Shown here one piece after another: positions 17,759 to 54,723 of a DNA stretch of 64,000 bases (positions within the stretch are counted from its first letter, which is position 1; each line of letters starts with the position of its first letter). A program made the position numbers and the translations under genes. Under the pieces are notes generated by a model, which saw only the letters and a program-made list of their open reading frames with translations, was not told where the DNA came from and did no database searches. Origin of the DNA: Alphaproteobacteria bacterium (lineage in GTDB: Bacteria > Pseudomonadota > Alphaproteobacteria > CAISOG01). Where the stretch lies: NCBI GenBank assembly GCA_044375625.1, contig JBILMH010000001.1:8667-72666 (forward strand), written 5' to 3'.

Positions 17759-19039
17759 ATGGCCATGACCAATCAATTGACAGATATCGAAAAAAAAATC
17801 CTGGAACACGAAGCGTGGGTTGATGGAGAGGAAACAGGATCTCGTTTGGTGCTTTCTGGTCGGTCCTTAGCAAGAATCCAAATGCCTAATCGCATGCTTA
17901 AGTCGGCAAAAATGATGGGTTGTGATCTGCAAGAGGGCAATTTTGCAGGAACCGATCTAAGTTTTTCAGATTTGTTTTGTTCCAATTTGGAACGCGCCAA
18001 TTTTTCCGAAGCCAATTTGATGCGTGCCAGCATGCGTGGGGTTAAAATTCGTAACGCCAATCTACGTGGAGCCAATTTAACGGAGGCCGATTTGCGGGCG
18101 GGGGCGATTGTTCGCCATGTTAATGAGGCCGCGGAAGAGGTCAGGACGGATCTGTCGTTCAGTCGGTTGGATGACGCCGTTATGCCCAATGTTAATCTAA
18201 ATGGCGCGGATTTGCGCAATGCCATCATGACAGGTGCTAACCTTAAAGGGGCTTATCTGCGCGGATGCAACTTGAGTTCCGTGGATTTGCGTAATGCGGA
18301 TTTATCCAATGTGGACTTGTCCAATGCTGATTTAAGCTTTGCCAATCTTAAGGGGTCATCCCTAAGCTATGCTGTCATCAGTCGTACCAGTTTTGACAAC
18401 GCTGTTGTTGATAATATGGATATCACGGGCACAGTCTTTGATGATAGCGCCCCGGCTGAACTGGTTGACATGCTGCAAGATAAAAGCCGCAACCAACCCC
18501 GCAAATTGGATGAGGTGTTGGCCAACCATGTGCAATGGATTGATTCACAGGGTGCCAAGGGGCAGCGGGCGATATTGGTCAAACGGGATCTTAGTAGTTT
18601 TGATTTGAATCATGTCAATCTTAGTGGGGCTGATTTACAAGAAGTTTTACTAATTGAGGCCAATTTGTTCCGTGCACTTTTGGTCATGACGAATCTTAGT
18701 GCCGCCAACTTGCGGGATGCCAATCTGTCCAAAGCCAATTTGGCTGGTGCCAATTTAACAGGTGCTGACCTTAGCCATGCCGATCTTAGAGATGCTGTTC
18801 TTAAGGCTATCATTTCGCGTGCCAGTAGTGCGCTCCCAGGTTCCAAATTGTGGCCAACCAACCTTAGCAATGCCAGGTTGGTGAACAGCAATCTTAATGG
18901 CGTGAATTTGACGGGGGCAAACCTGGCTGGTGCTGACCTTCGGGGAGCCAGCCTGCGTCGCGCCGTGCTTATAGGTGCCAATCTGACGGGGGCTAATATC
19001 GATAAAGCCGACTTCACCGATGCCATTTTGAAACAATAG
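17759..19039 (+). CDS. pentapeptide-repeat protein (426 aa), paralog of 53353..54723
   Basis: Long runs of A(D/N)LxxANLxGADLxxA…, with a central non-repeat linker (HVQWIDSQGAKGQRA). GC is lower than the flanks. Confidence 0.8.
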   Translation: MAMTNQLTDIEKKILEHEAWVDGEETGSRLVLSGRSLARIQMPNRMLKSAKMMGCDLQEGNFAGTDLSFSDLFCSNLERANFSEANLMRASMRGVKIRNANLRGANLTEADLRAGAIVRHVNEAAEEVRTDLSFSRLDDAVMPNVNLNGADLRNAIMTGANLKGAYLRGCNLSSVDLRNADLSNVDLSNADLSFANLKGSSLSYAVISRTSFDNAVVDNMDITGTVFDDSAPAELVDMLQDKSRNQPRKLDEVLANHVQWIDSQGAKGQRAILVKRDLSSFDLNHVNLSGADLQEVLLIEANLFRALLVMTNLSAANLRDANLSKANLAGANLTGADLSHADLRDAVLKAIISRASSALPGSKLWPTNLSNARLVNSNLNGVNLTGANLAGADLRGASLRRAVLIGANLTGANIDKADFTDAILKQ

Positions 19040-20311: not shown

Positions 20312-21670
20312 ATGATTGCCAAACTTTTGATTGCCAACCGTGGGGAAATCGCCCTGCGTATCCATCGCGCCGCTAAGGAGCTGGGTATGGCAACCGTTGC
20401 CGTCCATTCCACCGCGGACGCCGATGCCATGCATGTGCGGTTGGCGGATGAAAGCGTTTGCATCGGCCCCGCCGCCAGTAAGGATAGCTACCTGAATATG
20501 CCAGCGATCCTGTCGGCGGCCGCCATCACGGGGGCGGATGCCATTCACCCTGGCATTGGCTTTTTAGCCGAAAATGCCCGCTTTGCGGAGATGGTGGAGG
20601 ATCACGGCCTGATTTTTGTGGGGCCCAGCGCGGAACATATCCTGTTGATGGGCGATAAACTGACGGCTAAAGAGGCCGCAACCAAGCTGGGCATTCCGAT
20701 TGTGCCGGGCACGCCCGAACCGGTGGAGGAGGATGCGGTGGCCTTAGCCTTTGCTGAGGAGGTTGGCTATCCCGTGCTGGTGAAGGCGGCTGGTGGCGGG
20801 GGCGGTAAGGGCATGAAGGTGGTGATGACAGCTGAGGAAATGCCAGAATCGCTGTCGATTGCCCGTCGTGAGGCGCAAACCCATTTTGGCAACCCCGCGG
20901 TTTATATCGAAAAATACTTGCCCAGCCCGCGCCATATTGAGGTGCAGATTCTGGCCGATAAATTCGGCAACGCTGTCCATTTGGGGGAACGCGATTGCAG
21001 CCTGCAACGCCGCCACCAGAAGTTGTTGGAGGAGGCGCCTTCGCCCATCCTGACCCCTGAGCAGCGGGCAGAGCTGGGCACGCAATGCGTTAACGCGGTT
21101 AAGGAGCTGGGATACTACGGCGTCGGAACCTTTGAGTTTTTGTATCAGGATGGCCAGTTTTATTTCATCGAAATGAACACCAGGTTGCAGGTGGAACATC
21201 CCGTGACCGAGATGATCACCGGCATTGATTTGGTGCGCCAACAGCTGTTGGTGGCGGCTGGTGAAAAACTGCCGTTCAAACAAAAGGATATTAAATTCAC
21301 GGGGCACGCAATGGAATGCCGTTTGAACGCCGAAAACCCAATTAGCTTTGCCCCCCGTCCTGGCAAAATTAGCGATTACCATGCCCCTGGCGGCTTTGGG
21401 GTGCGGGTCGATTCGGCGCTGTACAACGGCTATAGGGTGCCCTCCCACTACGACAGTTTGGTCGCCAAGCTGATCGTCCACGGCAATGACCGCGCCACCT
21501 GCGTCGATCGGCTAAAGCGGGCATTGGGCGAATTTGTGATTCTGGGGATTGAAACCACGCTGCCGCTGTTCCAACGGCTGTTGGAGGATCCCGACTTCCT
21601 GGCCAGCAATTTTGATGTTAAATGGTTGGAGGGCTTCGTCGCCGAACTTCAGGAGAAAAAGGCGGCTTAG
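20312..21670 (+). CDS. accC: acetyl-CoA carboxylase biotin carboxylase subunit
   Basis: ATP-grasp protein starting MIAKLLIANRGEIALRI… (canonical AccC start); ~452 aa. Confidence 0.95.
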   Translation: MIAKLLIANRGEIALRIHRAAKELGMATVAVHSTADADAMHVRLADESVCIGPAASKDSYLNMPAILSAAAITGADAIHPGIGFLAENARFAEMVEDHGLIFVGPSAEHILLMGDKLTAKEAATKLGIPIVPGTPEPVEEDAVALAFAEEVGYPVLVKAAGGGGGKGMKVVMTAEEMPESLSIARREAQTHFGNPAVYIEKYLPSPRHIEVQILADKFGNAVHLGERDCSLQRRHQKLLEEAPSPILTPEQRAELGTQCVNAVKELGYYGVGTFEFLYQDGQFYFIEMNTRLQVEHPVTEMITGIDLVRQQLLVAAGEKLPFKQKDIKFTGHAMECRLNAENPISFAPRPGKISDYHAPGGFGVRVDSALYNGYRVPSHYDSLVAKLIVHGNDRATCVDRLKRALGEFVILGIETTLPLFQRLLEDPDFLASNFDVKWLEGFVAELQEKKAA

Positions 21671-21702
21671 ATATTTGAAAAATTTTTGAAGGACGGCTGA
21701 TT

Positions 21703-22884
21703 ATGACCAGAAAAGAGCTCGAAAAGCTTTTACAGGCTGGTGAGTCTAATAAAATTGAGTTCAAAAGCAGATTCACTAAAGACAACAAATTGCCTCAGAC
21801 AATTTGCGCATTTGCTAATAATCTAGATGGTGATGGCAAACCTGGATATATCATTATTGGCATCAATAATGATAAAACATTTAGTGGATTGCGTGATACC
21901 GATCAAATACAAACGACAATTGCTGAATATCGTTCAAACGCTAACATTAATCCGTTGCCATCTATAAGTGTACAACTCATCTCATGTGACGAGGGTGATG
22001 TGCTGGTAGTAAAAGTAGAGCCTTCATCAACCCCACCTCTACGCTATGAAGGGGTGGTATGGGTTAGAACGGGATCCAGCACTAGGAGGGCAAATCCAGA
22101 AGATGAACGTCGGCTTTCAGAGAAACGAACATCTTTGACAAAAACTTTTGACGCTGAGCCATGTAGAGATGCTTCTGTTGATGATCTAGCATTGCGCTTG
22201 TTTGATGAGTATCGCGGGCACGCAGTCAATTCTAGCGTTATAGCCGAGAATCATCGAAGTACCGATGAAAAATTAGCCTCTTTAAGTTTTTTTGATTTGA
22301 AAAATCAATGTCCGACTTATGCAGGGATATTATTATTTGGCACCAATATTCGGAATTTTTTACCAGGAGCTTATGTGCAATTTCTAAAGTTTTCAGGTAG
22401 TGATATTTCGGATCAACCAGAAGACATAGATGAAATCAATGGAGATTTAAGGACGCTTGTTGACAGAGTTTATGAGAAAATTCGTTCACATAATCGTGTT
22501 TCTCTGGTCAAAGGTGAACGTTTTGTAGAGAAGAATGTTCCAGAATATCCCGAATCTTCTCTGCGAGAATTTTTGAATAATGCTATTATACATCGTGATT
22601 ATCAATCAAATACTCCAATTCGGTTTTATTGGTATGAAGATCGCATAGAAATTTCAAGTCCTGGTGGTCTTTATCCTCCTGTAACTTATGATAAAATTGA
22701 AAAAAGGACTGGCTATAGAAATCCAATTGTTGCAAATGCGATGAAAGAGCTGGGGTATGTCGAAAAATTTGGCCGTGGCATTCAGACTGCTCAAAAAGCA
22801 CTGCAGGATAATGGTAACCCAGCAGCAGAGATTGCAAGAGAAGAAGGGTTTTTTCAGGTGACAATTTATAGGCGGGAATCATGA
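21703..22884 (+). CDS. AlbA_2 (Schlafen-like divergent AAA) + HATPase_c_4 domain protein (often annotated as putative transcriptional regulator / RecG-C-like)
   Basis: N-terminus …ESNKIEFKSRF…ICAFANNLDGDGKPGYIIIGINND… (AlbA_2). C-terminus …REFLNNAIIHRDYQSN…IEISSPGGLYPP…YRNPIVANAMKELGYVEKFGRGI (HATPase_c_4). GC is ~40%. Confidence 0.7.
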   Translation: MTRKELEKLLQAGESNKIEFKSRFTKDNKLPQTICAFANNLDGDGKPGYIIIGINNDKTFSGLRDTDQIQTTIAEYRSNANINPLPSISVQLISCDEGDVLVVKVEPSSTPPLRYEGVVWVRTGSSTRRANPEDERRLSEKRTSLTKTFDAEPCRDASVDDLALRLFDEYRGHAVNSSVIAENHRSTDEKLASLSFFDLKNQCPTYAGILLFGTNIRNFLPGAYVQFLKFSGSDISDQPEDIDEINGDLRTLVDRVYEKIRSHNRVSLVKGERFVEKNVPEYPESSLREFLNNAIIHRDYQSNTPIRFYWYEDRIEISSPGGLYPPVTYDKIEKRTGYRNPIVANAMKELGYVEKFGRGIQTAQKALQDNGNPAAEIAREEGFFQVTIYRRES

Positions 22885-23918
22885 AGATTGTTGCATTTTT
22901 TAACAACAAAGGTGGGGTAGGTAAAACAACCCTTGTTTACCATTTAGCCTGGATGTTTTCGCGTAAAAAAATTAAGACACTGGCGGTTGATTTGGATCCG
23001 CAAGCTAATCTGACGGCTATGTTTCTGAAGGAGGAACAATTAGGAGAAATTTGGCCAGATGGTGAGCATCCTAAAACCATTTATGGTGCTATCCGTCCGC
23101 TTACCAAGGGAACTGGTGATGTTCTTGATAATCCGCATGTGGAAGAAATACCAGATGTTATTCTCGATATTCTACATGTGGAAGAAATAGCGGAGTCTTC
23201 TTTAGGTTTAATTCCTGGAGATCTAGGGTTATCGCTTTTTGAAGATAAATTGTCAGAATCTTGGCCTAAATGTCATAATGGAGATGAGTCAGCTTTTCGC
23301 ACCATGACGGCTTTTTACCGTATTATTGAAAAAGCTGCTAAAGGATATGATTTGGTGCTGGTTGATATAGGTCCGAATTTGGGAGCAATCAACCGATCCG
23401 CTCTTATTTCCTGCGACCACGTTGTGTTGCCCTTGGCGGCGGATTTGTATTCGTTGCAAGGACTAAAAAACTTAGGGCCAACGTTGCGAAGTTGGCGCAA
23501 GACCTGGGGGGAGTTAAAGTCTAAAGCTCCAGGTGATTTGTCATATCCTAGTGGCGATATGAAACCAGCTGGATATGTGGTGATGCAACATGGCGCCAGA
23601 AAGGATCGTCCAGTTAAGGCTTACGATCGTTGGATGGCCAAAATTCCTGAAGTCTATCGGAAGTTTATTTTGGCCGAAGAAAACCCTAACGAGACCATAA
23701 CCGTTAACGACGATCCGTATAAATTGGCTACACTTAAGCACTATCACAGCTTAATGCCATTGGCACAGCAGTCACATAAGCCAATGTTTGATTTGAAACC
23801 TGCTGATGGAGCCATTGGTTCTCATGTTGAGTCAGTACAGGGTTGTTATCGCGATTTTGAAGCTTTGGCGAAAAGATTGGCACAAGAGATCGAATTGGTA
23901 TGGCCAGATGGTGCCTAG
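22881..23918 (+). CDS. ParA/Soj-like deviant Walker-A ATPase (AAA_31/CbiA family) with ~120-aa C-terminal extension
   Basis: N-terminal MKIVAFFNNKGGVGKTTL… and DLDPQANLT. The start overlaps the upstream stop (ATGA), and the gene is in the same low-GC island. Confidence 0.7.
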   Translation: MKIVAFFNNKGGVGKTTLVYHLAWMFSRKKIKTLAVDLDPQANLTAMFLKEEQLGEIWPDGEHPKTIYGAIRPLTKGTGDVLDNPHVEEIPDVILDILHVEEIAESSLGLIPGDLGLSLFEDKLSESWPKCHNGDESAFRTMTAFYRIIEKAAKGYDLVLVDIGPNLGAINRSALISCDHVVLPLAADLYSLQGLKNLGPTLRSWRKTWGELKSKAPGDLSYPSGDMKPAGYVVMQHGARKDRPVKAYDRWMAKIPEVYRKFILAEENPNETITVNDDPYKLATLKHYHSLMPLAQQSHKPMFDLKPADGAIGSHVESVQGCYRDFEALAKRLAQEIELVWPDGA

Positions 23919-23936
23919 TATTGAGTTATAACCCCC

Positions 23937-24539: not shown

Positions 24540-24783
24540 GGGAAATGCTCTGAATCGCCCCACAGCATGGGTGACAAGTTGGCGGTTTGGCGTATCATGA
24601 GGGCGATTGAACCGCTATAGTCATTCCACTTTAAAAATCTACAGTGCTGCAAATGTCACGATCTCTGTGATACGGTGCTCATGTACGTCCGTGTACGCTC
24701 CGCTCCGTTTCTCGACCTCGTAACATTTTCGCAGGCTGTATATTTCTAAATTGGAACAACTATAAAACCCATACGTCCCGCCG

Positions 24784-27700: not shown

Positions 27701-28380
27701 GATTCCAACTGGCCAGCCATGATTTGGATATTCGCGGTGCGGGCAATCTGTTGGGCGATGAACAGTCGGGGCAGATCCGTGAGGTGGGGATTGAGCTGTA
27801 TCAGCAGATGTTGGCCGACGCGGTGGCAACGGTTAAGGCGGGCGGTACAGCGGGCGGCGGCGATGGGGCAGCAACCCAGCCGCAGGGTCAGGATTGGACG
27901 CCCACCATTCAAATCAGCGATACCGCCCTGTTTATCCCAGAGGACTATATTGGCGATTTGAATCTGCGCCTGCAAATCTATCGCCGCCTGGCGGATCTGG
28001 CCACCACGGCGGAGGTGGAGGCGATGGCGGTGGAGCTGATCGACCGTTTCGGCAAGTTGCCGGCGCAGGTGGACAATTTGTTGCAGCTGCTGATCATCAA
28101 ACAACACTGCAAGACGTTGAATATTGATCGGTTGGAGGCGGGGCCAAAGGCGGTTGTGCTGTCCTTCCACAACCATCAATGCCCCAACCCAACCGCGTTG
28201 GTGCAGATGATTGCCAGTGACCCGATTCGGTTTAAGCTGCGCCCTGATCAGCGCCTGGTGTACAGCCTGGGTGGATCCCTGACCCAACTAAGCGCCCTGG
28301 CCGCCTGTCAACACGTCTTGGCGCGGCTGGCGAAACTGGCGGAGCCAATCCTAAATGCGCAGGCAGTTCAACAACGATAA
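24784..28380 (+). CDS. mfd: transcription-repair coupling factor
   Basis: 1198 aa with a UvrB-interacting N-terminus, a central RecG-like helicase (GDVGFGKTEVA Walker A; DEEQHFGV) and the TRCF C-terminal domain. Confidence 0.95.
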   Translation: MKPAANALSMTNAAIKATGQPPLTPGQAVTLYAAPQGYRALQLAGWQRASPGRWLVVTADERGVASWAADLAVVAPDLTVLTLPAWDCLPYDRSPPHAAVMGQRLATLHQLQADPARSTIVLAPVAALLQRVLPATELAKLVFPLKTGALLNRDNLLRWMNDQGYERMETVREPGQYAVRGGLLDLFAPAGDQALRLDFFGAELERLRRFDPLSQRSLGEVEEALLLPASEISLNEATIRRFRDNYRATFGAAALHDPLYLAITEGRRFSGAEHWLPLFYDHLASPLSYFGADTRVVMEEEALPRGQAFLQSVQEYAAARRQHARTGDTPYRPLAEELLYLKAAEWQQDLTRYPLGQWLARERLPTHLPGLAEQQHWSVGGEQGYNFVTIRQDAAQNLLAKVVDYIQAEWAAGQAVILTCYSEGSSQRLSQLLREAGLTNLRPAPTWPDQPQPQLLELVQWPLAAGFRSEGLTVISEADIFGERLGASPSRSRGRRAEHFIRDLTALLPGDLVVHADHGIGKFEGLTMISAGGVRHDCLCLIYADNAKLYLPVENLELLSRFGGEEAAAGVALDRLGGAAWQARKARVKKRLMEMAGQLIQTAASRAMAQAPEIAPDQTAYQAFCARFPYAETEDQEQAIADVLADLAAGKAMDRLVCGDVGFGKTEVALRAACAVALSGWQVAVVAPTTLLVRQHAANFTNRFAGLPVRLGALSRLTPAAVATDTKKALASGQVDVVIGTHALLSKSMNFARLGLVIVDEEQHFGVAQKERLKELQAGVHVLTLTATPIPRTLQLALSGVRDLSLITTPPVDRLAVETHVMPFDPVVLREALLHEYHRGGQSFFVVPRIEDLPKLQEELAELVPEIKIAVAHGGLSAGDLEAVMGQFLDRRADLLLCTHIIESGLDIPHANTIIIHRADRFGLSQLYQLRGRVGRGKVRGYAYLTLPAGQVVTESATRRLQVMAGLDQLGAGFQLASHDLDIRGAGNLLGDEQSGQIREVGIELYQQMLADAVATVKAGGTAGGGDGAATQPQGQDWTPTIQISDTALFIPEDYIGDLNLRLQIYRRLADLATTAEVEAMAVELIDRFGKLPAQVDNLLQLLIIKQHCKTLNIDRLEAGPKAVVLSFHNHQCPNPTALVQMIASDPIRFKLRPDQRLVYSLGGSLTQLSALAACQHVLARLAKLAEPILNAQAVQQR

Positions 28381-28842: not shown

Positions 28843-30000
28843 CTAAATGTCTTCAGCGTCGCTGATGGCCGCGCCGCCGCCCAGGCCGCCACCCTCATTG
28901 GCCTCAGCCGCCTCAGCGCTGGTAGGCTCCGCGATTAGGTTTTCGGCAACCAGGCCAGCGTTTTGTCTGATGTAGGCCTCAATACTGTCGGCCAAGGCGG
29001 GATTATCCTTCAGGAATTGTTTGGAATTCTCGCGCCCCTGACCAATCCGTTGCCCCTGCGCGCTGAACCAGGCGCCCGATTTTTGCACCACGCCAGCGGC
29101 CTCACCCAGGTCAATCAGCTCACCAATTTTGGAAATACCCGCGCCATAGATCATGTCGAATTCCACCTGACGGAAGGGGGGTGCCAGCTTATTTTTCACC
29201 ACCTTAACCCGCGATTTTTGACCCAGGATGACATCCTTATCCTGAATTTTGCCGATGTTGCGGATATCCAAACGAACCGAGGCATAGAATTTTAGGGCGT
29301 TACCGCCGGTGGTGGTTTCGGGATTGCCCCACATCACCCCAATTTTTTGGCGCACTTGGTTCAAAAAGATCACCATGGTGCGGGAACGGGAGATAGAGGC
29401 TGTCAATTTCCGCAAAGCCTGGCTCATCAACCGTGCCTGCAATCCCATATGGGAATCGCCCATATCCCCCTCCAACTCCGCCTTTGGTACCAGGGCGGCA
29501 ACCGAATCGACCACCAACACATCCACCGCGCCGCTGCGCACCAGGGTGTCACAAATCTCCAACGCCTGTTCCCCATGATCGGGCTGGCTGATAATCACAT
29601 CGTTCAGCACCACGCCCAGCTTTTGGGCATAGGCGGGATCCAGGGCGTGCTCTGCGTCAATAAAGGCGCAGGTGCCGCCCGCCTTTTGCGCCTCAGCAAT
29701 CACATGCAGCGCCAGGGTGGTTTTACCAGAGCTTTCCGGGCCAAAAATTTCAATAATCCGCCCACGGGGCAAGCCGCCAACGCCCAGCGCGATGTCCAGG
29801 CCGAGAGATCCTGTCGAAATCACCTCAACCTCCACCGCCTGATCCCGTTGACCCAAGCGCATGACCGAGCCCTTGCCAAAGGCGCGCTCAATCTGCCCCA
29901 TCGCGGCCTCTAAAGCCTTCAGGCGCTCGCCCGCCTTTTGGTCGGTGGGTTTTAATTCGGTCACATTGGTGTTGGAAGATGACGTTGCGCGAATCGACAT
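28843..30000 (-). CDS. recA: recombinase RecA
   Basis: …[22 protein letters not shown]…[38 protein letters not shown]… with N- and C-terminal low-complexity tails. Confidence 0.95.
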
Positions 30001-30125
30001 GGGGGCATCCTGTAAGTAAGAGTTCCGATTGTGGTTCTAGTCATAGCGCTTTCGTTGCCTGCCCGCAACATTATGTATGCGCGGATGTAGCACGGGGGTT
30101 ATCGCATCCCATCTCTCCGTCTGTT

Positions 30126-30290
30126 GTCATCCTACTCCTTGTAAGTAGGATCTCCTTAGGCTTTTACCGATTGTGCAGCGGTTAGGGTTTGAGACCCTAC
30201 CCATAAAGAGTAGGATCTATGCGATGGTATCGCCTGAAAAGCGGTGAGGATTTGAGATTCTACCCACAGGGGGTAGAATGACATTGTGAG
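30126..30290. repeat. cluster of short palindromic (hairpin) elements shared with 38846..38944 (GTCATCCTACTCCTTGTAAGTAGGATCTCC; GATTCTACCC…GGGTAGAATGACATTGTGA)
   Basis: Each element is an imperfect palindrome. Near-identical copies recur ~8.7 kb away, in the corC-hflC intergenic region. Confidence 0.8.
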
Positions 30291-30342
30291 GTGGCGACAT
30301 TGCGTCCATTCTTTACCCCGCCCCCGCCATTATTTGCCCCCG

Positions 30343-30410
30343 CCCCTGTCTTTTTTCGCCCCCTCCCCTGTCTTTTTTCGCCCCCTCCCCTGTCTTTTTT
30401 CGCCCCCTCC
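30343..30410. repeat. 22-bp tandem repeat x3 (CCCCTGTCTTTTTTCGCCCCCT), followed by a CCCCCTCCC…GGGAGGGGG palindrome
   Basis: Direct reading gives units at 30343, 30365 and 30387. A related sequence (TTTTTTGTTCCCCCTCCCCCAACC…GGGAGGGGG) occurs at 38465-38515. Confidence 0.85.
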
Positions 30411-30541
30411 CCCAACCCCCTCCCGCAAGTGGAGGGGGAACACTCCCACCCACATCGTGCCTTGTCATCTGGACTTGTCATCCAGAGGGGGCATGCTTAA
30501 ACTTAGTTTTTGTGCCGCAATAGCAGATGGGGTGGGGTTGG

Positions 30542-31429
30542 ATGATTCCTTTTGATGATCGCGATGGCCTGATATGGCTGGATGGTAAGCTGGTTCCCTG
30601 GCGGGAGGCGCGCGTGCACGTGCTGACCCATGCATTGCACTATGGCAGCGCGGTGTTTGAGGGCGAACGGGTCTATGATGGCCGCGTCTTTCGGGAACGG
30701 GATCACGCCATCCGCCTGCAAAAATCGGCCGAAATTTTGGATTTCGAGATCCCCTTTAGCCTCGAACAAATGGCGCAAGGCGTGCAGGAATTGATTGCGC
30801 AGAACAACATCCCCAATGGCTATTTGCGGCGTTTAGCCTGGCGCGGCAGTGAGATGATCGGGGTGTCGGCGCAACACACCCGAATCCACCTGGCGATGGC
30901 GGTGTGGGAATGGCCCAGCTATTTCCCGCCGGAGTTGTTGCAGCAGGGTATCCGCCTGGCCACCTCAGACTGGGTATGCCCGCCCCCCAACGCGATGCCA
31001 ACGGCCAGCAAGGCGGTGGGCAATTACATGATCCGCACCCTGTCGAAACATAAGGCTGAGCGGGCGGGCTTTACCGATGCGCTGCTGTTGGACTGGCGTG
31101 GCAATCTGGCTGAGGCGACGGGCGCCAACCTGTTCCTGCTGATCGATGGCGCGCTGCACACCCCAACGCCCGACTGCTTTTTGAACGGTATCACCCGCCA
31201 AACCGTTATTGCCTTAGCGCGGCGGCGGGGGATTGAGGTAATCGAACGGCATATTGCGCCGTCGGAATTGGCCGCGGTGGGTGAAGTGTTCCTGACCGGA
31301 ACCGCCGCGGAGGTCACGCCGGTTGGTCGTATTGATGATCGCAGCTTTGCGGTGGGCACCCTAACCCGCCAGCTGATGGCCGATTATCAGGACTTGGTGC
31401 GCGCCTCAGCCGATGATGTTGTTATCTAG
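30542..31429 (+). CDS. ilvE: branched-chain amino acid aminotransferase (class IV PLP fold)
   Basis: …WLDGKLVPWREARVHVLTHALHYGSAVFEGERVY… and …ELLQQGIRLATSDW…. The start is taken at MIPFDD. Confidence 0.8.
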   Translation: MIPFDDRDGLIWLDGKLVPWREARVHVLTHALHYGSAVFEGERVYDGRVFRERDHAIRLQKSAEILDFEIPFSLEQMAQGVQELIAQNNIPNGYLRRLAWRGSEMIGVSAQHTRIHLAMAVWEWPSYFPPELLQQGIRLATSDWVCPPPNAMPTASKAVGNYMIRTLSKHKAERAGFTDALLLDWRGNLAEATGANLFLLIDGALHTPTPDCFLNGITRQTVIALARRRGIEVIERHIAPSELAAVGEVFLTGTAAEVTPVGRIDDRSFAVGTLTRQLMADYQDLVRASADDVVI

Positions 31430-35605: not shown

Positions 35606-35913
35606 AACCTTTTTGCATTTCTGTTGCAGCTGAAAAAGATTTAAAACAGATTTGGCGATATACCGCTCAACATTATGGTATATTGCAAGCGGATTTATAT
35701 ACTAATGTTCTGCTGTTAGGGTGTCAAAAAATCGCCCAGCAACCGTTGGTCTTTCTCTCTCTTAGATTGGCCAACCAAGATTTTAGAGTGTATCGATATA
35801 AGAATCATTATATTTTGTATTTAGTTGCTGATGATAAGGTTGTAATTGTTGCATTTTTTCATGAGCGCATGGATATAATGGTTCGACTAAGAGCAAGGTT
35901 AGAAAATAGTTAA
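35602..35913 (+). CDS. parE: type II toxin, ParE/RelE family
   Basis: 103 aa. The start overlaps the antitoxin stop (GTGA). Typical ParE layout (…AEKDLKQIWRYTAQHYG…VYRYKNHYILYLVADDKVVIVAFFHERMD); lower GC. Confidence 0.7.
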   Translation: MKPFCISVAAEKDLKQIWRYTAQHYGILQADLYTNVLLLGCQKIAQQPLVFLSLRLANQDFRVYRYKNHYILYLVADDKVVIVAFFHERMDIMVRLRARLENS

Positions 35914-36023
35914 AGAAAAGCCCCCCCCAAAGTTTTTTCGCCACCAGCCCCTCCGCATGGCTAGCCAAATGTGGTGGCGGGGGGTATGCTAAGGGAATAC
36001 AGCAACCCCCTACTGTTTTTGCC

Positions 36024-38423: not shown

Positions 38424-38425
38424 AG

Positions 38426-39100
38426 CTTTTTTCAGGTCGGTTGCCCGCTTTTGTTCCCCTCCCTTGTTTTTTTTGTTCCCCCTCCCCCAACCTCCTCCCG
38501 CCAGGGGAGGGGGAATATCTGAACACACTCTCTCCGCATGGGGAGGGGGAATACACTCCACCCTTGCACTGGGGGATTGTTGTCGCGCCGCTCTAATGCT
38601 ATGAAAATGATACGAAAAACACTCCACCCTTGCGGGGGAGTCGCGGGGCGCAAGCCCAGCGGTGGGGGGTAAGTAGGGCTTCGTCATCTCCGTGTTTTTT
38701 GAAAAGGGGGGCGGAGATCCAGAGCCCTGTTGTCGCTTTTCCAAGCCCTAGCACCGCATGGATCCCCCGCCTTCGCGGAGGATGATAACTTGAGAAGGCC
38801 TTTTCAGTTTTGTCATCCTAGCCCCGCCTTTTCCGCCGCGCCGCTGTCATCCTACTCCTTGTGAGTAGGATCTCCTTACCGTCCGTGCCGCTTGTACAGC
38901 GGTTAGGATTTGAGATTCTACCCATAAAGGGTAGAATGACATTGTGATGTGGATGCATCGCACTCATCCACTCCGCCTCTCCGCCGTCATCTCCGTGTTT
39001 TTTTGAAAAGGGGGGCGGAGATCCAGAGCCCTGTTGCCGCCTTTCCGCGCCCTAGCATCGCATGGATCCCCCGCTTTCGCAGAGGATGACAGTCTATCCC
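38426..39100. repeat. composite intergenic repeat region: ~108-bp direct repeat (38681..38786 and 38985..39092) with terminal inverted repeats flanking palindromic elements shared with 30126..30290
   Basis: The two ~108-bp copies are ~95% identical and begin/end TCATCTCCG…CGGAGGATGA. The internal elements GTCATCCTACTCCTTGTGAGTAGGATCTCC and GATTCTACCCATAAAGGGTAGAATGACATTGTGA are near-identical to the recA-ilvE intergenic copies. Confidence 0.85.
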
Positions 39101-39101
39101 C

Positions 39102-53352: not shown

Positions 53353-54723
53353 TTGTTGCTGGGGAAATCGATGGCTGGTTCAAAACATTCGGTGTCGTCA
53401 AAAGAACTGATAGCACAGATTCTTAGCCATAACAGTTGGCTTGCAGGGCGGGCAGGATCCAGAGCCAATCTGTCGTTGATGGATCTAAGTGGTTTGGGGC
53501 TAAGTTCCATCAACCTTAGTCAGGCTAAGATGGATGGCGCCAACCTGACCAGCGCGCTGTTGGTGGAAACCAACCTTAGCCAGGCCGATTTGTTTGCATC
53601 GAATCTAACAGGCTGTGATCTTAGGCAGGCAAAATTGGTTGATACCAATCTGCGTGGCGCCGTGTTGTATAAGGCGGATCTTCGCCGGGCGGATCTAACG
53701 CGGATAGATTTGCGTCCAGGAGCTTTTTTAACCCATTTTTCTAAAAAACAGGCAGCGAAGGAGAAACCCTCAGCATCGAACAAAATTTCTGAACCCGTTG
53801 CGAATTTGCAGCGGGCAAAGCTGGATGATGCCCTGATGGTTGATGCTTTGCTTTGTTACGCCGATTTTAACGGCGCATCGTTGCAGCGTATCAATTTAAC
53901 TGGTGCTGATTTAACCGGTGCAGACCTTAGCAATGCTGACCTTACGGGTGCCTGTTTGCGTAACGTCAAATTGGCTCAAGCCCGCATTCATAATACGATT
54001 CTGCGTAACGCCGACCTTACAGGCGTGCTGATATCCGATGAACAGCTACAAGCGATGGATCTTTTTGGCGCTTATGCAAGATTGCCTGTAGTGGGTAAAC
54101 AATTGGCTGTCGAAGAATCGGATGTCGATATTTCAGAAAAAATTCTTCGTAGCCTAAGCGTGAATTTGCAAGATTGTATTAGGCAGCATGAGCAATGGGT
54201 TCAGTCGGGGGGTGTGCATGGCAAGCGTGCTGATCTTTCTAACCAAAACCTTCAGGCACTTAGATTGGATTCATTGAATTTAACAGGTGCAAAGCTGGCC
54301 AATTGCCAATTGCAATCTGCCAGTTTGGTTAAAGCCGTCTTAACCATTGCCGATCTGCGCGGAGCTGTTTTGTGTGATGCCGTGCTGGAGGATGCGATGC
54401 TGGAGGGCAGCAATTTATCGGGCGCGAATCTTAAGGGGGCAAATCTTAAGGGGGCGCGCCTAGCCAGCAATGCCCATCGGGCAACCAACCTTTCCAACGC
54501 CAATTTGCAGCATGCGGATTTAAGCGGCGCTGACCTTAGTCATACCAATTTAAGAAATGCCGATCTTCGCAATACCAATTTGGCGCGCACCAATTTGTCG
54601 GGTGCAGACCTTAGTGATGCAAACCTTAGCGATACATTGTTGGATAAAGCGGTTTTGAATGGCGCCATTCTGGACAATGCCAAATTTGGTCTTAGTGAAT
54701 CCATGGCCGCCATCATCAGCTAA
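53353..54723 (+). CDS. pentapeptide-repeat protein (456 aa), paralog of 17759..19039
   Basis: Extensive A(D/N)LxxxNLxGA repeats and a central linker HEQWVQSGGVHGKRADL resembling the HVQWIDSQGAKGQRA linker of the other copy. GC is lower than the flanks. Confidence 0.8.
   Translation: MLLGKSMAGSKHSVSSKELIAQILSHNSWLAGRAGSRANLSLMDLSGLGLSSINLSQAKMDGANLTSALLVETNLSQADLFASNLTGCDLRQAKLVDTNLRGAVLYKADLRRADLTRIDLRPGAFLTHFSKKQAAKEKPSASNKISEPVANLQRAKLDDALMVDALLCYADFNGASLQRINLTGADLTGADLSNADLTGACLRNVKLAQARIHNTILRNADLTGVLISDEQLQAMDLFGAYARLPVVGKQLAVEESDVDISEKILRSLSVNLQDCIRQHEQWVQSGGVHGKRADLSNQNLQALRLDSLNLTGAKLANCQLQSASLVKAVLTIADLRGAVLCDAVLEDAMLEGSNLSGANLKGANLKGARLASNAHRATNLSNANLQHADLSGADLSHTNLRNADLRNTNLARTNLSGADLSDANLSDTLLDKAVLNGAILDNAKFGLSESMAAIIS

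Follow-up and report, generated by a model that had tools for sequence, protein, structure and literature searches.

The 64-kb stretch of DNA that we analysed (the window) contains recA and an ilvE-like aminotransferase gene, which are divergently transcribed and separated by a spacer of 526 bp. The genes and the elements between them are listed here in the order of their coordinates.

28843-30000, minus strand: recA coding sequence, an ORF of 385 aa; Pfam RecA_N and RecA_C were found on an identical protein from metagenome contigs.
30001-30107, minus strand: recA-proximal unique region, the only part of the spacer common to the window and the related locus L003.
30108-30124, plus strand: flank module CCCATCTCTCCGTCTGT; its reverse complement is the 'ACAACGGAGAGG...' flank that adjoins GGATGAC beside many copies.
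30125-30153, plus strand: hairpin 1, GTCATCCTACTCCTTGTAAGTAGGATCTCC (letters at 30126-30155), with a TGTC tag followed by ATCCTACTC, a loop, AGTAGGAT and C; CGTC-REP/SRM-like.
30154-30190, plus strand: dimer spacer 1, which contains a small hairpin CCGATTGTGCAGCGG and then TTAGGGTTTGAG.
30191-30217, unstranded: hairpin 2, GAGACCCTACCCATAAAGAGTAGGATC, a headless middle hairpin (CCCTACCC / ATAAA / GAGTAGG).
30218-30256, plus strand: dimer spacer 2 (CTATGCGATGGTATCGCCTGAAAAGCGGTGAGGATTTGAG), a spacer type shared with L014, L023 and L027.
30257-30283, minus strand: hairpin 3, GATTCTACCCACAGGGGGTAGAATGACATTGTGA at 30256-30289 (ATTCTACCC / ACAGG / GGGTAGAAT plus GACA), with a TGTC tag on the minus strand; CGTC-REP/SRM-like.
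30284-30335, unstranded: right flank (ATTGTGAGGTGGCGACATTGCG...) and the first, degenerate 22-bp unit.
30336-30412, unstranded: 22-bp tandem repeat, 3.5 copies of GCCCCCTCCCCTGTCTTTTTTC (Tandem Repeats Finder: period 22, 98% matches, score 147).
30403-30438, unstranded: family B module, C-runs and a palindrome.
30416-30438, unstranded: C-rich palindrome CCCCCTCC-CGCAAGT-GGAGGGGG, arms at 30416-30423 and 30431-30438.
30445-30526, plus strand: ilvE-proximal unique region, kept in every strain with the aminotransferase neighbour.
30527-31429, plus strand: class IV aminotransferase gene (ilvE-like), 295 aa, PF01063 Aminotran_4; on identical contigs gene callers place its start 15 nt later (30542).

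The three hairpins, the 22-bp tandem and the palindrome that the original prediction had placed in a spacer of ~530 bp were all present within a few bases of their predicted positions. Hairpin 1, whose TGTC tag occupies 30125-30128, has an enlarged loop because its stem carries one mismatch. Dimer spacer 1 can be aligned to the spacer (CCGyCTGTAmAACGG yTAGGATTTGAG) that is conserved among the ~92-nt dimers typical of the family described below. Hairpin 2 is shared by two successive dimers, as the right arm of the first and the left arm of the second, and has lost its tag. A 63-nt unit is duplicated within the spacer, giving a recombined '1.5-dimer' of 157 nt versus the usual 92. This '1.5-dimer' spans 30125-30283, and the window's single dimer lies at 38846-38940. 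When folded as ssDNA, 30120-30295 gave z = -3.5 and no shuffle folded as well. For the flank module at 30108-30124, the likeness to right flanks in L021, L018 and L030 was judged by eye. On the other side of the hairpins, a ATTGTGATG flank follows many family copies, and 30283-30325 had no BLAST copies in other loci.

Near-identical copies of two of these elements had been noted at 38.85-38.95 kb. Indeed, hairpin 1 recurs at 38846-38875 (38845-38873 when its TGTC tag is counted) and hairpin 3 at 38914-38947 (38915-38941 for the tagged hairpin, with TGTC on the minus strand), against a chance expectation of 0.00 matches for such second copies (100 shuffles). The ssDNA fold of 38840-38955 reached z = -5.6, which no shuffle equalled. 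The copies are part of a second repeat island:

38424-39101, unstranded: the whole island, between convergent corC-like and Band_7 genes.
38449-38515: copy of family B (C-rich/palindrome module).
38620-38670: family D.
38680-38790 and 38985-39095: family C, degenerate SRM-type dimers.
38813-38845: half-site linker.
38846-38940: single 95-nt CTACCC-type dimer.

Within the 64-kb window the hairpins occupy just these two loci, as would be expected if a local segment had been duplicated between 30.1 kb and 38.9 kb and no family existed. A strict hairpin pattern retrieved 14 contigs of the Holosporaceae MAG Loclat_bin-11545 and nine contigs of the alphaproteobacterial MAG ZLKRG11 (23 contigs, all from this one pattern, in two MAGs that are both fragmented) as well as 24 metagenome stretches, each with different flanking genes, which leaves a purely local duplication with next to no probability. 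Three isolated matches in unrelated phyla are about what chance would produce, and a scan of viral contigs gave no match to the hairpin. One Loclat contig (L022) is 93-94% identical to the window over 35.9-42.6 kb, so the MAG organisms are close relatives of the window organism. The original prediction had proposed a dispersed family of REP/MITE-like or Rickettsia-palindromic-element-like sequences and had named confinement to the two loci as the result that would speak against it. The occurrence at unrelated intergenic sites on 23 MAG contigs and 24 metagenome stretches bears out such a family, and it fits the superfamily of CGTC-tagged REPs. Nearly all copies are intergenic: 65 of 68 matches lie outside crude ORFs of at least 100 aa, and the remaining three fall in dubious short ORFs that run through repeat clusters. 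The neighbouring genes are convergent, tandem or divergent, and many of the relatives' copies are located downstream of genes.

The family unit measures ~92 nt, with dimers of 90-95 nt predominating, and is built of two inverted hairpins with outward-facing tags that flank a structured spacer of ~38 nt. In each hairpin (canonical sequence TGTCATCCTACCCCTTGTGGGTAGGATC) a (C/T)GTC tag precedes a 9-bp stem, which starts A-T, T-A and encloses a 5-nt loop, and a C follows the palindrome. Alignment of 25 dimers revealed that the terminal helices are 97.8% and 100% paired, compared with 50% or less in slid controls. Changes on both sides of the helix were seen at three pairs per helix (ATCC/GGAT to and from ATTC/GAAT; CTACCC/GGGTAG, CTCCCC/GGGGAG and CTAGCC/GGCTAG interchanging), and the covariation score of 0.171 (0.077 for shuffles) was reached by none of 500 shuffles. 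The stems are kept by compensatory changes.

This mode of conservation bears on the idea of IS-derived MITEs, whose terminal inverted repeats would be recognised by a DDE transposase acting in trans. Units of ~92 nt with terminal inverted repeats of ~27 nt, dispersed and often situated at the ends of MAG contigs, would suit such elements. However, conservation is centred on the palindrome of each arm and is accompanied by compensatory changes, which argues that a hairpin is recognised and not a duplex end. No target-site duplication is visible around the copies, and no locus of the related DNA displayed a transposase gene or an IS with matching ends. A true MITE in the same window (24612-24764), with an empty-site allele and a CTATA duplication, looks quite unlike the hairpin dimers. 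We therefore regard a MITE origin as very unlikely.

The hairpins fit the definition of the CGTC-tagged REPs, for which Di Nocera, De Gregorio & Rocco defined the families CGTC-1 to CGTC-4 and which include RPE-4 and RPE-6 of Rickettsia conorii as well as dRS3 of Neisseria (Di Nocera et al., 2013, BMC Genomics 14:522, PMC3733652). These repeats carry a CGTC or TGTC tag (CCTC occurs as a variant), stems of 8-9 bp starting AT, loops of 4-5 nt and a CCA tail; their hosts are mostly Alphaproteobacteria, and most copies are dimers with spacers of 20-100 bp that sometimes contain stem-loops (PMC3733652). In our material the tag is TGTC at hairpin 1, at hairpin 3 (minus strand) and at both 38.9-kb hairpins, and CGTC or TGTC in relatives. 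Stems with 5-nt loops were found in relatives (ATCCTACCC/GGGTAGGAT) and in the window (ATTCTACCC/GGGTAGAAT and ATCCTACTC/GAGTAGGAT). The relatives' copies are multi-copy, extragenic and arranged as inverted dimers in alphaproteobacterial hosts, the spacers hold small stem-loops, and heterodimers with different stems occur, all as in the published class. The repeats are distinguished by the stem ATCCTACCC and the conserved 38-nt spacer, both of them particular to an uncultured freshwater Holosporaceae-like lineage. As for the tails, relatives have GGATCCATG (CCA) on one arm and GGATCTCAA on the other, whereas those of the window copies are CTC, CTA or absent. The window copies are also partly degenerate: the stem of hairpin 1 has its mismatch, hairpin 2 is untagged, and mutations have altered the tag or stem of each family C copy. 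They may be decaying relics.

Rickettsia palindromic elements are 100-150 bp long and often lie in frame within protein-coding genes of Rickettsia (Ogata et al., 2000). We did not assign the hairpins to this group since all copies are intergenic except the three in dubious short ORFs; the tie to RPE-4 and RPE-6 consists solely of shared membership in the CGTC REPs (PMC3733652). On a larger scale, unrelated short modules (families A, B, C and D and half-sites) occur together in an order and orientation that vary, and the islands evolve much faster than the flanking genes. In this they are like the mosaic intergenic repeat clusters known as BIMEs of E. coli, NIMEs of Neisseria and RIMEs of Sinorhizobium, although the module sequences are unrelated. 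BIME and NIME have been described elsewhere (PMC2817692; PMC11893778).

A second body of literature concerns Ssn proteins, which bind hairpins of this kind only in ssDNA and cleave immediately 5' of them; for 71% of ssn homologues the flanking DNA contains such motifs (Chenal et al., 2025, Nat Commun 16:2388, PMC11893778). The 64-kb window contains no GIY-YIG/Ssn gene. In related DNA, an ORF of 100 aa with a GIY-YIG domain (PF01541, E = 3e-15 and 1.5e-13) is located within a 390-nt hairpin pair in L041/L046 and L039, and the right arm of this pair is the same CCATGGATCCTACCCACAAGGGGTAGGATGAC hairpin. Three same-strand copies in L041, spaced by ~440 bp, recall an integron attC-like cassette array but are in fact tandem hairpin pairs, and the GIY-YIG gene lies inside one of these pairs. 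In relatives of the window organism, a 102-aa GIY-YIG gene (P0003) sits between pepA and holC, with a CTACCC-type dimer 63 nt downstream of it, and the order pepA-ssn-dimer-holC (P0003, P0005, P0008) is kept in three lineages at 87-100% nucleotide identity. Two more distant GIY-YIG homologues are directly abutted by tagged hairpins of their own. One of these two, P0104, is 54% identical to the P0003 protein, and the arrays that come after it agree exactly with the published NTS consensus. For four GIY-YIG proteins NCBIfam returned no family and the PDB only weak UPF0213 matches.

The published SRM string, HGTCWYN(0-2)YYVSBRHN(0-5)WNVSBRGN(0-2)RNCYNB, had no match on either strand of the window (mean of shuffles 0.2) because the CTACCC-type stems violate its GC-rich V/S/B/R positions. 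It does match the ssn-flanking hairpins of L041, L039 and L066-L076 and 12 hairpins in related MAG loci, where heterodimers combine a CTACCC-type hairpin with one that fits the string. In the alignment of 25 dimers, G1, T2, C3 and C27, the C that follows the palindrome, are invariant; hairpin 1 keeps GTC and the post-palindrome C, and hairpin 3 keeps GTC with the C replaced by T. The GTC upstream and the C directly after the palindrome, which are the bases critical for cleavage and binding in the published system, the intergenic clustering and the relatives' 'SRM-ssn-SRM' layout around a single-domain gene of ~100 aa thus agree with the Ssn system, while stems outside the degenerate string and a window without ssn do not. 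The association of GIY-YIG genes with such hairpins is already published (2025). A link between the 2013 catalogue of CGTC REPs and the Ssn/SRM system of 2025, which is absent from the main text of the 2025 paper, is evident here, and the uncultured freshwater Holosporaceae-like lineage joins the hosts of Ssn-type hairpin repeats. Since an abundant stem type escapes the SRM string, genome surveys based on the string will undercount.

The identity of the enzyme also separates these repeats from classical REPINs, doublets of GTAG-type REPs that are copied by a RAYT of the IS200/IS605 superfamily (Bertels & Rainey, 2011; Bertels et al., 2017, PMC5581495). Inverted doublets of short palindromes with a spacer, acting as one unit and present in many extragenic copies, are common to both, and our stems contain the letters GTAG. 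There is further likeness to the REPIN/RAYT system in a single-copy, vertically inherited nuclease gene with its own flanking repeats, as shown by the synteny of pepA-ssn-dimer-holC in three lineages. However, the unpaired tag is (C/T)GTC and not GTAG, and the gene bracketed by the hairpins encodes a GIY-YIG nuclease instead of an HUH/Y1 transposase. Using E. coli RayT (NC_000913) as a tblastn query, the best hit in the window and related loci had E = 0.4, and an ORF with a Y-x-x-N-P/HUH motif was absent from these 424 kb. Nor do CGTC repeats flank a tyrosine transposase gene in the 2013 catalogue, which lists no dedicated transposase for them (PMC3733652). We hence consider a REPIN origin highly improbable.

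Taken together, we favour the interpretation that lineage-specific intergenic repeats make up the spacer as a mosaic, with a core of CGTC-tagged REP hairpins or Ssn-related motifs that are handled by an Ssn-type nuclease and are neutral for recA, and we assign it a probability of roughly 0.7. Judging from the family and its context, the hairpin would fold whenever replication, repair or DNA uptake exposes the DNA as a single strand. It might then be bound by a small single-domain Ssn-family GIY-YIG nuclease, whose gene would lie in another part of the genome, as the relatives suggest, and this enzyme might nick the strand a few nt upstream (5') of the tag. Recombination of repeat-bearing ssDNA could be limited at sites of this kind. 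Compared with the Neisseria host of Ssn, the organism is probably no naturally competent pathogen and a role in limiting transformation may therefore not apply. Recombination or nuclease-assisted insertion probably accounts for the spread and rearrangement of the repeats around these sites, and the repeats would accumulate where intergenic DNA is unconstrained.

Because the elements lie upstream of recA, the original prediction had held that they could affect its regulation. The region 30001-30107, which probably represents the promoter, operator and 5'UTR of recA, has zero BLAST copies elsewhere among related loci and includes, on the recA strand, a promoter-like pair TTGCGG-17-TATGAC (30068-30040, identified by eye). 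It also contains a GTTC-N8-GTTC direct repeat at 30022-30037. The expectation that no canonical SOS box would be found is literally right, as GTTC-N7-GTTC is absent from the whole window. On the other side, 30445-30526 lacks BLAST copies in related loci, too, and a consensus scan located a promoter-like match TTGTCA-17-TAAACT at 30475-30503. The repeats lie between these two upstream regions and are most likely neutral passengers.

An alternative is that the repeats are cis-regulatory parts of a divergent recA/ilvE control region, serving as extra promoters, operators or a phase-variable tandem through which ilvE or recA expression is tuned. Four of five sigma-70-like matches in the spacer fall on hairpins, among them TTGAGA-16-TAGAAT with 10/12 positions (shuffles average 0.4), and the copy number of the 22-bp unit varies between strains. 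But L003 encodes an identical RecA next to a different upstream neighbour and retains merely the first 107 bp of upstream sequence without any of the elements, which is why a regulatory role for recA is not supported; the repeat content of the spacer, starting at 30108, also differs among strains that are 96-100% identical. The same modules are found at dozens of unrelated intergenic sites, including the convergent genes at 38.4-39.1 kb, and more than 115 nt, including the conserved proximal segment, separate the tandem from the aminotransferase start. The promoter matches are a by-product of the hairpin consensus letters TTG...TAGGAT. A control region is accordingly an improbable explanation, with some regulatory side-effect of the sigma-70-like hexamers, which are consensus matches only, being possible.

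In other bacteria REPs stabilise upstream mRNA (cited in PMC3733652). A comparable function at the RNA level, as small RNAs, mRNA-stabilising 3' hairpins or terminators, might be considered for the present repeats given their stable predicted folds and the many relatives' copies downstream of genes. In the spacer, no mRNA 3' end is expected at the hairpins because the flanking genes are divergently transcribed, and no T-run follows the hairpins as a terminator would have it. Rfam had no match at gathering threshold in the whole window, and for the spacer at E <= 1 it returned only a plant miRNA (E = 0.18). Moreover, Ssn proteins do not bind RNA (PMC11893778). A function as RNA thus seems very unlikely. 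We conclude that the region should be annotated as a CGTC-REP/SRM dimer mosaic with a variable tandem and not as recA regulatory DNA.

The 22-bp tandem is best considered together with its C-rich neighbour. A degenerate upstream copy of the unit was detected at 30306-30346 by Tandem Repeats Finder, and unit-like sequence is also present in L010, L020 and L012. The number of copies is 3.5 in the window and L001, 2.5 in L002, 1.5 in L006 and 0 in L004 and L005. The family B module that follows recurs at 38449-38515 and at seven loci of related genomes, and its C-runs create a G-quadruplex motif, GGGAGGGGGTTGGGGGAGGGGG, on the minus strand at 30403-30424. In our interpretation the tandem is a slippage-prone module of family B whose copy number varies between strains.

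Differences between strains supply natural material on how such repeats spread: tandems of 0-3.5 copies, a unit inserted beside a tag, and islands rearranged between genes that are 93-98% identical. L006 possesses an extra unit of ~175 nt (a family C dimer and linker) within 30108-30124. This unit sits 4-5 nt 5' of the TGTC tag of hairpin 1, exactly where Ssn would nick ssDNA, a position that hints at insertion of new units at Ssn cut sites next to hairpins already in place. Should this be true, Ssn would be the 'missing' mobilising enzyme of the CGTC-tagged REPs. We put forward only tentatively, and as rather unlikely, the broader notion that CTACCC-type hairpins are a class of SRM missed by the published string and that Ssn mobilises CGTC-tagged REPs, in which case the Ssn/SRM system would be broader than catalogued. 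A clean empty-site allele of the CTACCC-type dimer was not found among the strains compared. Further rearrangements are a 33-nt deletion in one family C copy of L002 and the second island of L022, which is itself rearranged between genes that are 93-94% identical to those of the window; L027 loses synteny past the shared gene. Other indels between strains do not involve these hairpins and comprise a 2,259-bp gene insertion, a 153-bp MITE, a 410-bp indel and a replacement of 774 versus 244 bp.

The spacer between recA and a divergently oriented class IV aminotransferase gene (526 bp) carries a real, dispersed and structured repeat family, a lineage-specific member of the CGTC-tagged REP/Ssn-related-motif kind. 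It sits within a rapidly evolving mosaic that includes a 22-bp tandem of variable copy number. The three hairpins, the tandem and the palindrome of the original prediction are all present, and their coordinates were confirmed. The relevant features are:

28843-30000, minus strand: recA
30001-30107: unique sequence, the sole part of the spacer common to L003 (a contig with identical RecA)
30108 to ~30440: ~340 bp, nearly all of it modules that recur elsewhere
30126-30155: hairpin 1
30191-30217: hairpin 2
30256-30289: hairpin 3
30336-30412: 22-bp tandem, 3.5 copies (Tandem Repeats Finder, 98% matches, score 147)
30416-30438: palindrome CCCCCTCC-N7-GGAGGGGG
30445-30526: unique sequence, conserved in all cases where the aminotransferase gene adjoins it
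30527 (30542 by gene callers on identical contigs), plus strand: start of the class IV aminotransferase gene (PF01063, ilvE-like)
38424-39101: second repeat island, between convergent corC-like and Band_7 genes

The division of the spacer into two unique ends and a modular centre was derived from comparison with other strains and other loci. The modular centre opens with a flank module and hairpin 1, continues with a spacer that holds a small hairpin, the headless hairpin 2 and another spacer, and closes with hairpin 3 and a C-rich family B module that includes the 22-bp tandem and the palindrome. The exception is the right flank of ~50 bp (30284-30335), of which no copies were found in the fetched loci. 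When folded as single-stranded DNA, two hairpin-bearing stretches gave z = -3.5 and z = -5.6, and none of the shuffles folded as well. The minus (recA-sense) strand carries a strong G-quadruplex motif, GGGAGGGGGTTGGGGGAGGGGG, at 30403-30424; the motif belongs to the dispersed family B module, and its position overlaps one palindrome arm.

Near-identical copies of two elements had been predicted near 38.85-38.95 kb. Indeed, hairpin 1 recurs at 38846-38875 and hairpin 3 at 38914-38947, with 0.00 matches expected from shuffles. The surrounding island also contains family B, a family D module, two family C elements, a half-site linker and one ordinary dimer. We scanned one genome per prokaryotic species with a strict pattern for one hairpin type (GAGAYYCTACCCNNNNNGRGTAGRAT) and obtained matches on 14 contigs of the 'Holosporaceae bacterium' MAG Loclat_bin-11545 and on 9 contigs of the alphaproteobacterial MAG ZLKRG11, besides three isolated matches in unrelated phyla, about the number expected by chance. 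L022, one of the Loclat contigs, is 93-94% identical to 35.9-42.6 kb of the window, which identifies the window organism as a close relative of this MAG; the whole second island is rearranged in L022 at 93-94% identity. A metagenome scan added 24 further stretches with the hairpin, some of them from more distant organisms of 44-62% G+C. Because the pattern recurs on 23 MAG contigs and 24 metagenome stretches, the elements are not confined to the two loci of the window, as a local duplication would have been. Hairpin matches fell outside crude ORFs in 65 of 68 cases, in convergent, tandem and divergent gene contexts. Several of the genome-scan matches lay at contig ends, as expected of repeats that break assemblies.

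Aligned copies define an element of ~92 nt. Its first arm reads (C/T)GTC-ATCCTACCC-yyTrT-GGGTAGGAT-C, followed by a ~38-nt spacer with a small CCG...CGG hairpin and TAGGATTTGAG, and its last arm reads ATCCTACCC-AyArr-GGGTAGGAT-GAC(G/A); the element is thus one tagged palindrome present twice, inverted, with the tags outward. Among 25 distinct copies the terminal helices were paired at 97.8% and 100%, three pairs in each helix had changed on both sides, and the covariation score was 0.171 compared with 0.077 in shuffles (0/500 reached 0.171), while slid controls paired at no more than 50%. One arm per copy had been chosen by its palindromic pattern and is therefore biased; the other was chosen by GTCATYCT alone, and this arm bears most of the variant stems (CTCCCC, CTAGCC, CTCCGC). 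The window element at 30126-30282 is a 157-nt '1.5-dimer': a half-unit of 63 nt occurs twice, the hairpin in the middle is untagged, and the whole looks like a product of unequal recombination. The window copies are partly degenerate: the stem of hairpin 1 is mismatched, hairpin 2 is untagged, and each of the two family C copies has mutations in tag or stems.

CGTC-tagged REPs are defined by a terminal CGTC, often TGTC, a CCA tail, stems of 8-9 bp that nearly always begin with A-T and then T-A, and loops of 4-5 nt. They occur mostly in alphaproteobacterial hosts and mostly as inverted dimers with spacers of 20-100 bp, some containing stem-loops (Di Nocera et al., 2013; PMC3733652). Rickettsia RPE-4 and RPE-6, together with Neisseria dRS3, are assigned to this superfamily in the same paper. 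The hairpin of the window family fits this published definition. The published degenerate string for Ssn-related motifs (SRM) had no match in the window (shuffles 0.2), because the CTACCC-type stems misfit its GC-rich stem positions. It did match 12 hairpins in related MAG loci, including the type of the window's family C elements, as well as the partner hairpins of CTACCC-type arms in heterodimers and the left arms of the ssn-containing pairs described below. Since the string misses the window hairpins and matches their partners, we treat them as a putative diverged SRM/CGTC-REP subtype and not as strict SRMs; a local stem type that escapes the published search string goes beyond the routine. 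RAYT, the REPIN enzyme, was looked for and not found: the best tblastn hit with E. coli RayT had E = 0.4, and 424 kb held no ORF with the Y..NP motif.

Association of such hairpins with GIY-YIG genes has already been published. Ssn proteins are single-domain GIY-YIG proteins of ~94 aa that bind hairpin repeats solely as single-stranded DNA and cut a few nt 5' of the tag; cleavage depends critically on the GTC preceding the palindrome, and binding on the C that follows it. Their targets are called NTS in Neisseria (consensus CGTCATTCCCGCGMAVGCGGGAATCYRG) and SRM elsewhere, SRMs flank 71% of ssn homologues, and the Ssn/NTS system reduces the transformation of N. meningitidis by DNA that bears NTS (Chenal et al., 2025; PMC11893778). 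In metagenome contigs of organisms more distant from that of the window (L041 6946-7335, the same in L046, and L039 5898-6289), a complete Ssn-type GIY-YIG ORF of 100-101 aa (PF01541, E = 3e-15 and 1.5e-13) lies within a 390-nt heterodimer hairpin pair whose right arm is the same CCATGGATCCTACCCACAAGGGGTAGGATGAC hairpin. One hairpin lies 7 nt from the stop codon and the other 16 nt from the start codon, and the pair adjoins tandem gene-less dimers of 137-180 nt. These loci share the IS-like 'SRM-ssn-SRM' layout of the Ssn system (Chenal et al., 2025).

Closer to the window, pepA and holC enclose a gene for a 102-aa GIY-YIG protein (P0003) that is followed, 63 nt downstream, by a CTACCC-type dimer; this holds for the Loclat MAG and for metagenome contigs from three related lineages (87-100% nucleotide identity). 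The hairpins there are perfectly conserved and the dimer spacer has diverged: in two lineages that are 90% identical overall (L058 3372-3544 and L062 3369-3541), both 27-nt hairpins and the CACAAT flank are identical, and the 119-nt spacer shows many substitutions. This pattern suggests that selection or gene conversion may act on the hairpins. For P0075, a more distant homologue, a tagged-hairpin dimer ends 6 nt before the start codon. The gene of the hscB-linked homologue P0104 (54% identical to P0003; L066-L075, 1501-1791 in most) is followed from 7 nt after its stop codon by canonical dimers matching the exact NTS consensus with a period of ~258 nt, their number varying by sample (two in L066, L068 and L074, three in L067). 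Up to 1.5 kb of flank around the P0075 and P0104 genes held no further such hairpins. The 64-kb window contains no GIY-YIG gene, and we infer from the relatives that the organism's genome carries one.

The mosaic varies among contigs that encode identical RecA and share 96-100% nucleotide identity. The window and L001 have 3.5 copies of the 22-bp unit, L002 has 2.5, L006 has 1.5, and L004 and L005 have none; in L002, one family C copy also carries a 33-nt deletion. L006 carries an extra unit of ~175 nt (a family C dimer plus linker) 4-5 nt 5' of the hairpin 1 tag, the position at which an Ssn nuclease would cut. This single polymorphism, likewise beyond the routine, hints at insertion beside the tag; a deletion in the window lineage would explain the difference equally well.

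The repeats had also been proposed to affect recA regulation. This idea was not sustained, as L003 keeps an identical RecA with a different upstream neighbour and just 107 bp of common upstream DNA, beyond which it has different repeats. On present evidence the mosaic is not a recA regulatory element. In Alphaproteobacteria the canonical LexA box is GTTC-N7-GTTC, and in agreement with the original prediction it is absent from the whole window. Within the 107 bp conserved in all strains, a GTTC-N8-GTTC direct repeat lies at 30022-30037 with a promoter-like pair, TTGCGG-17-TATGAC (found by eye, recA strand), just upstream, both within 30022-30068. Their position makes a non-canonical LexA/SOS operator possible but unproven; a G>T change in L004 and L005 gives GTTC-N7-GTTT instead.

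Four of five sigma-70-like matches fall on hairpins (TTGAGA-16-TAGAAT, 10/12; shuffles average 0.4). The tagged hairpins at 30124-30284 read TTGTCA/TTGAGA-16-TAGGAT/TAGAAT, scoring up to 10/12, three facing the aminotransferase gene and one recA. These scores are a consequence of the bases that make up the hairpin consensus and are not evidence of function; the matches are probably its by-product.

Other variable loci were observed in the window. A MITE-like element of ~153 bp at 24612-24764, just upstream of mfd (TRCF), is unrelated to the hairpin family. It has imperfect terminal inverted repeats of ~20 nt (TAGTCATTCCACTTTAAAAAT / ATTTCTAAATTGGAACAACTA) with CTATA on each side, is absent from L004 and L005 (empty site ...AATCCATAAAACC...), and has copies of 92-100% identity, frequently located at contig ends, in L051, L010 and L021. 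The window, L001 and L002 share a precise insertion of 2,259 bp (21670-23928) that L003-L006 lack; it separates accC from the leucyl/phenylalanyl-tRNA protein transferase gene. The insertion encodes an AlbA_2/HATPase_c_4 protein (21703-22884) and a ParA-like CbiA/AAA_31 ATPase (22881-23918), and may represent a small cassette of mobile or defence type. At the 3' end of mfd (window 28339-28360), L004 and L005 have an AT-rich insertion of 410 bp that includes a small ORF. They also have 774 bp, with a divergent ParE and an extra ORF, where the window has 244 bp (35678-35923) spanning its ParE toxin gene, so this toxin-antitoxin locus varies between strains. Finally, 15-nt-periodic arrays of the AATTTAACnGGTGCTGAyCTT type, typical of pentapeptide-repeat protein genes, occupy two separate genes (18059-18940 and 53587-54627).
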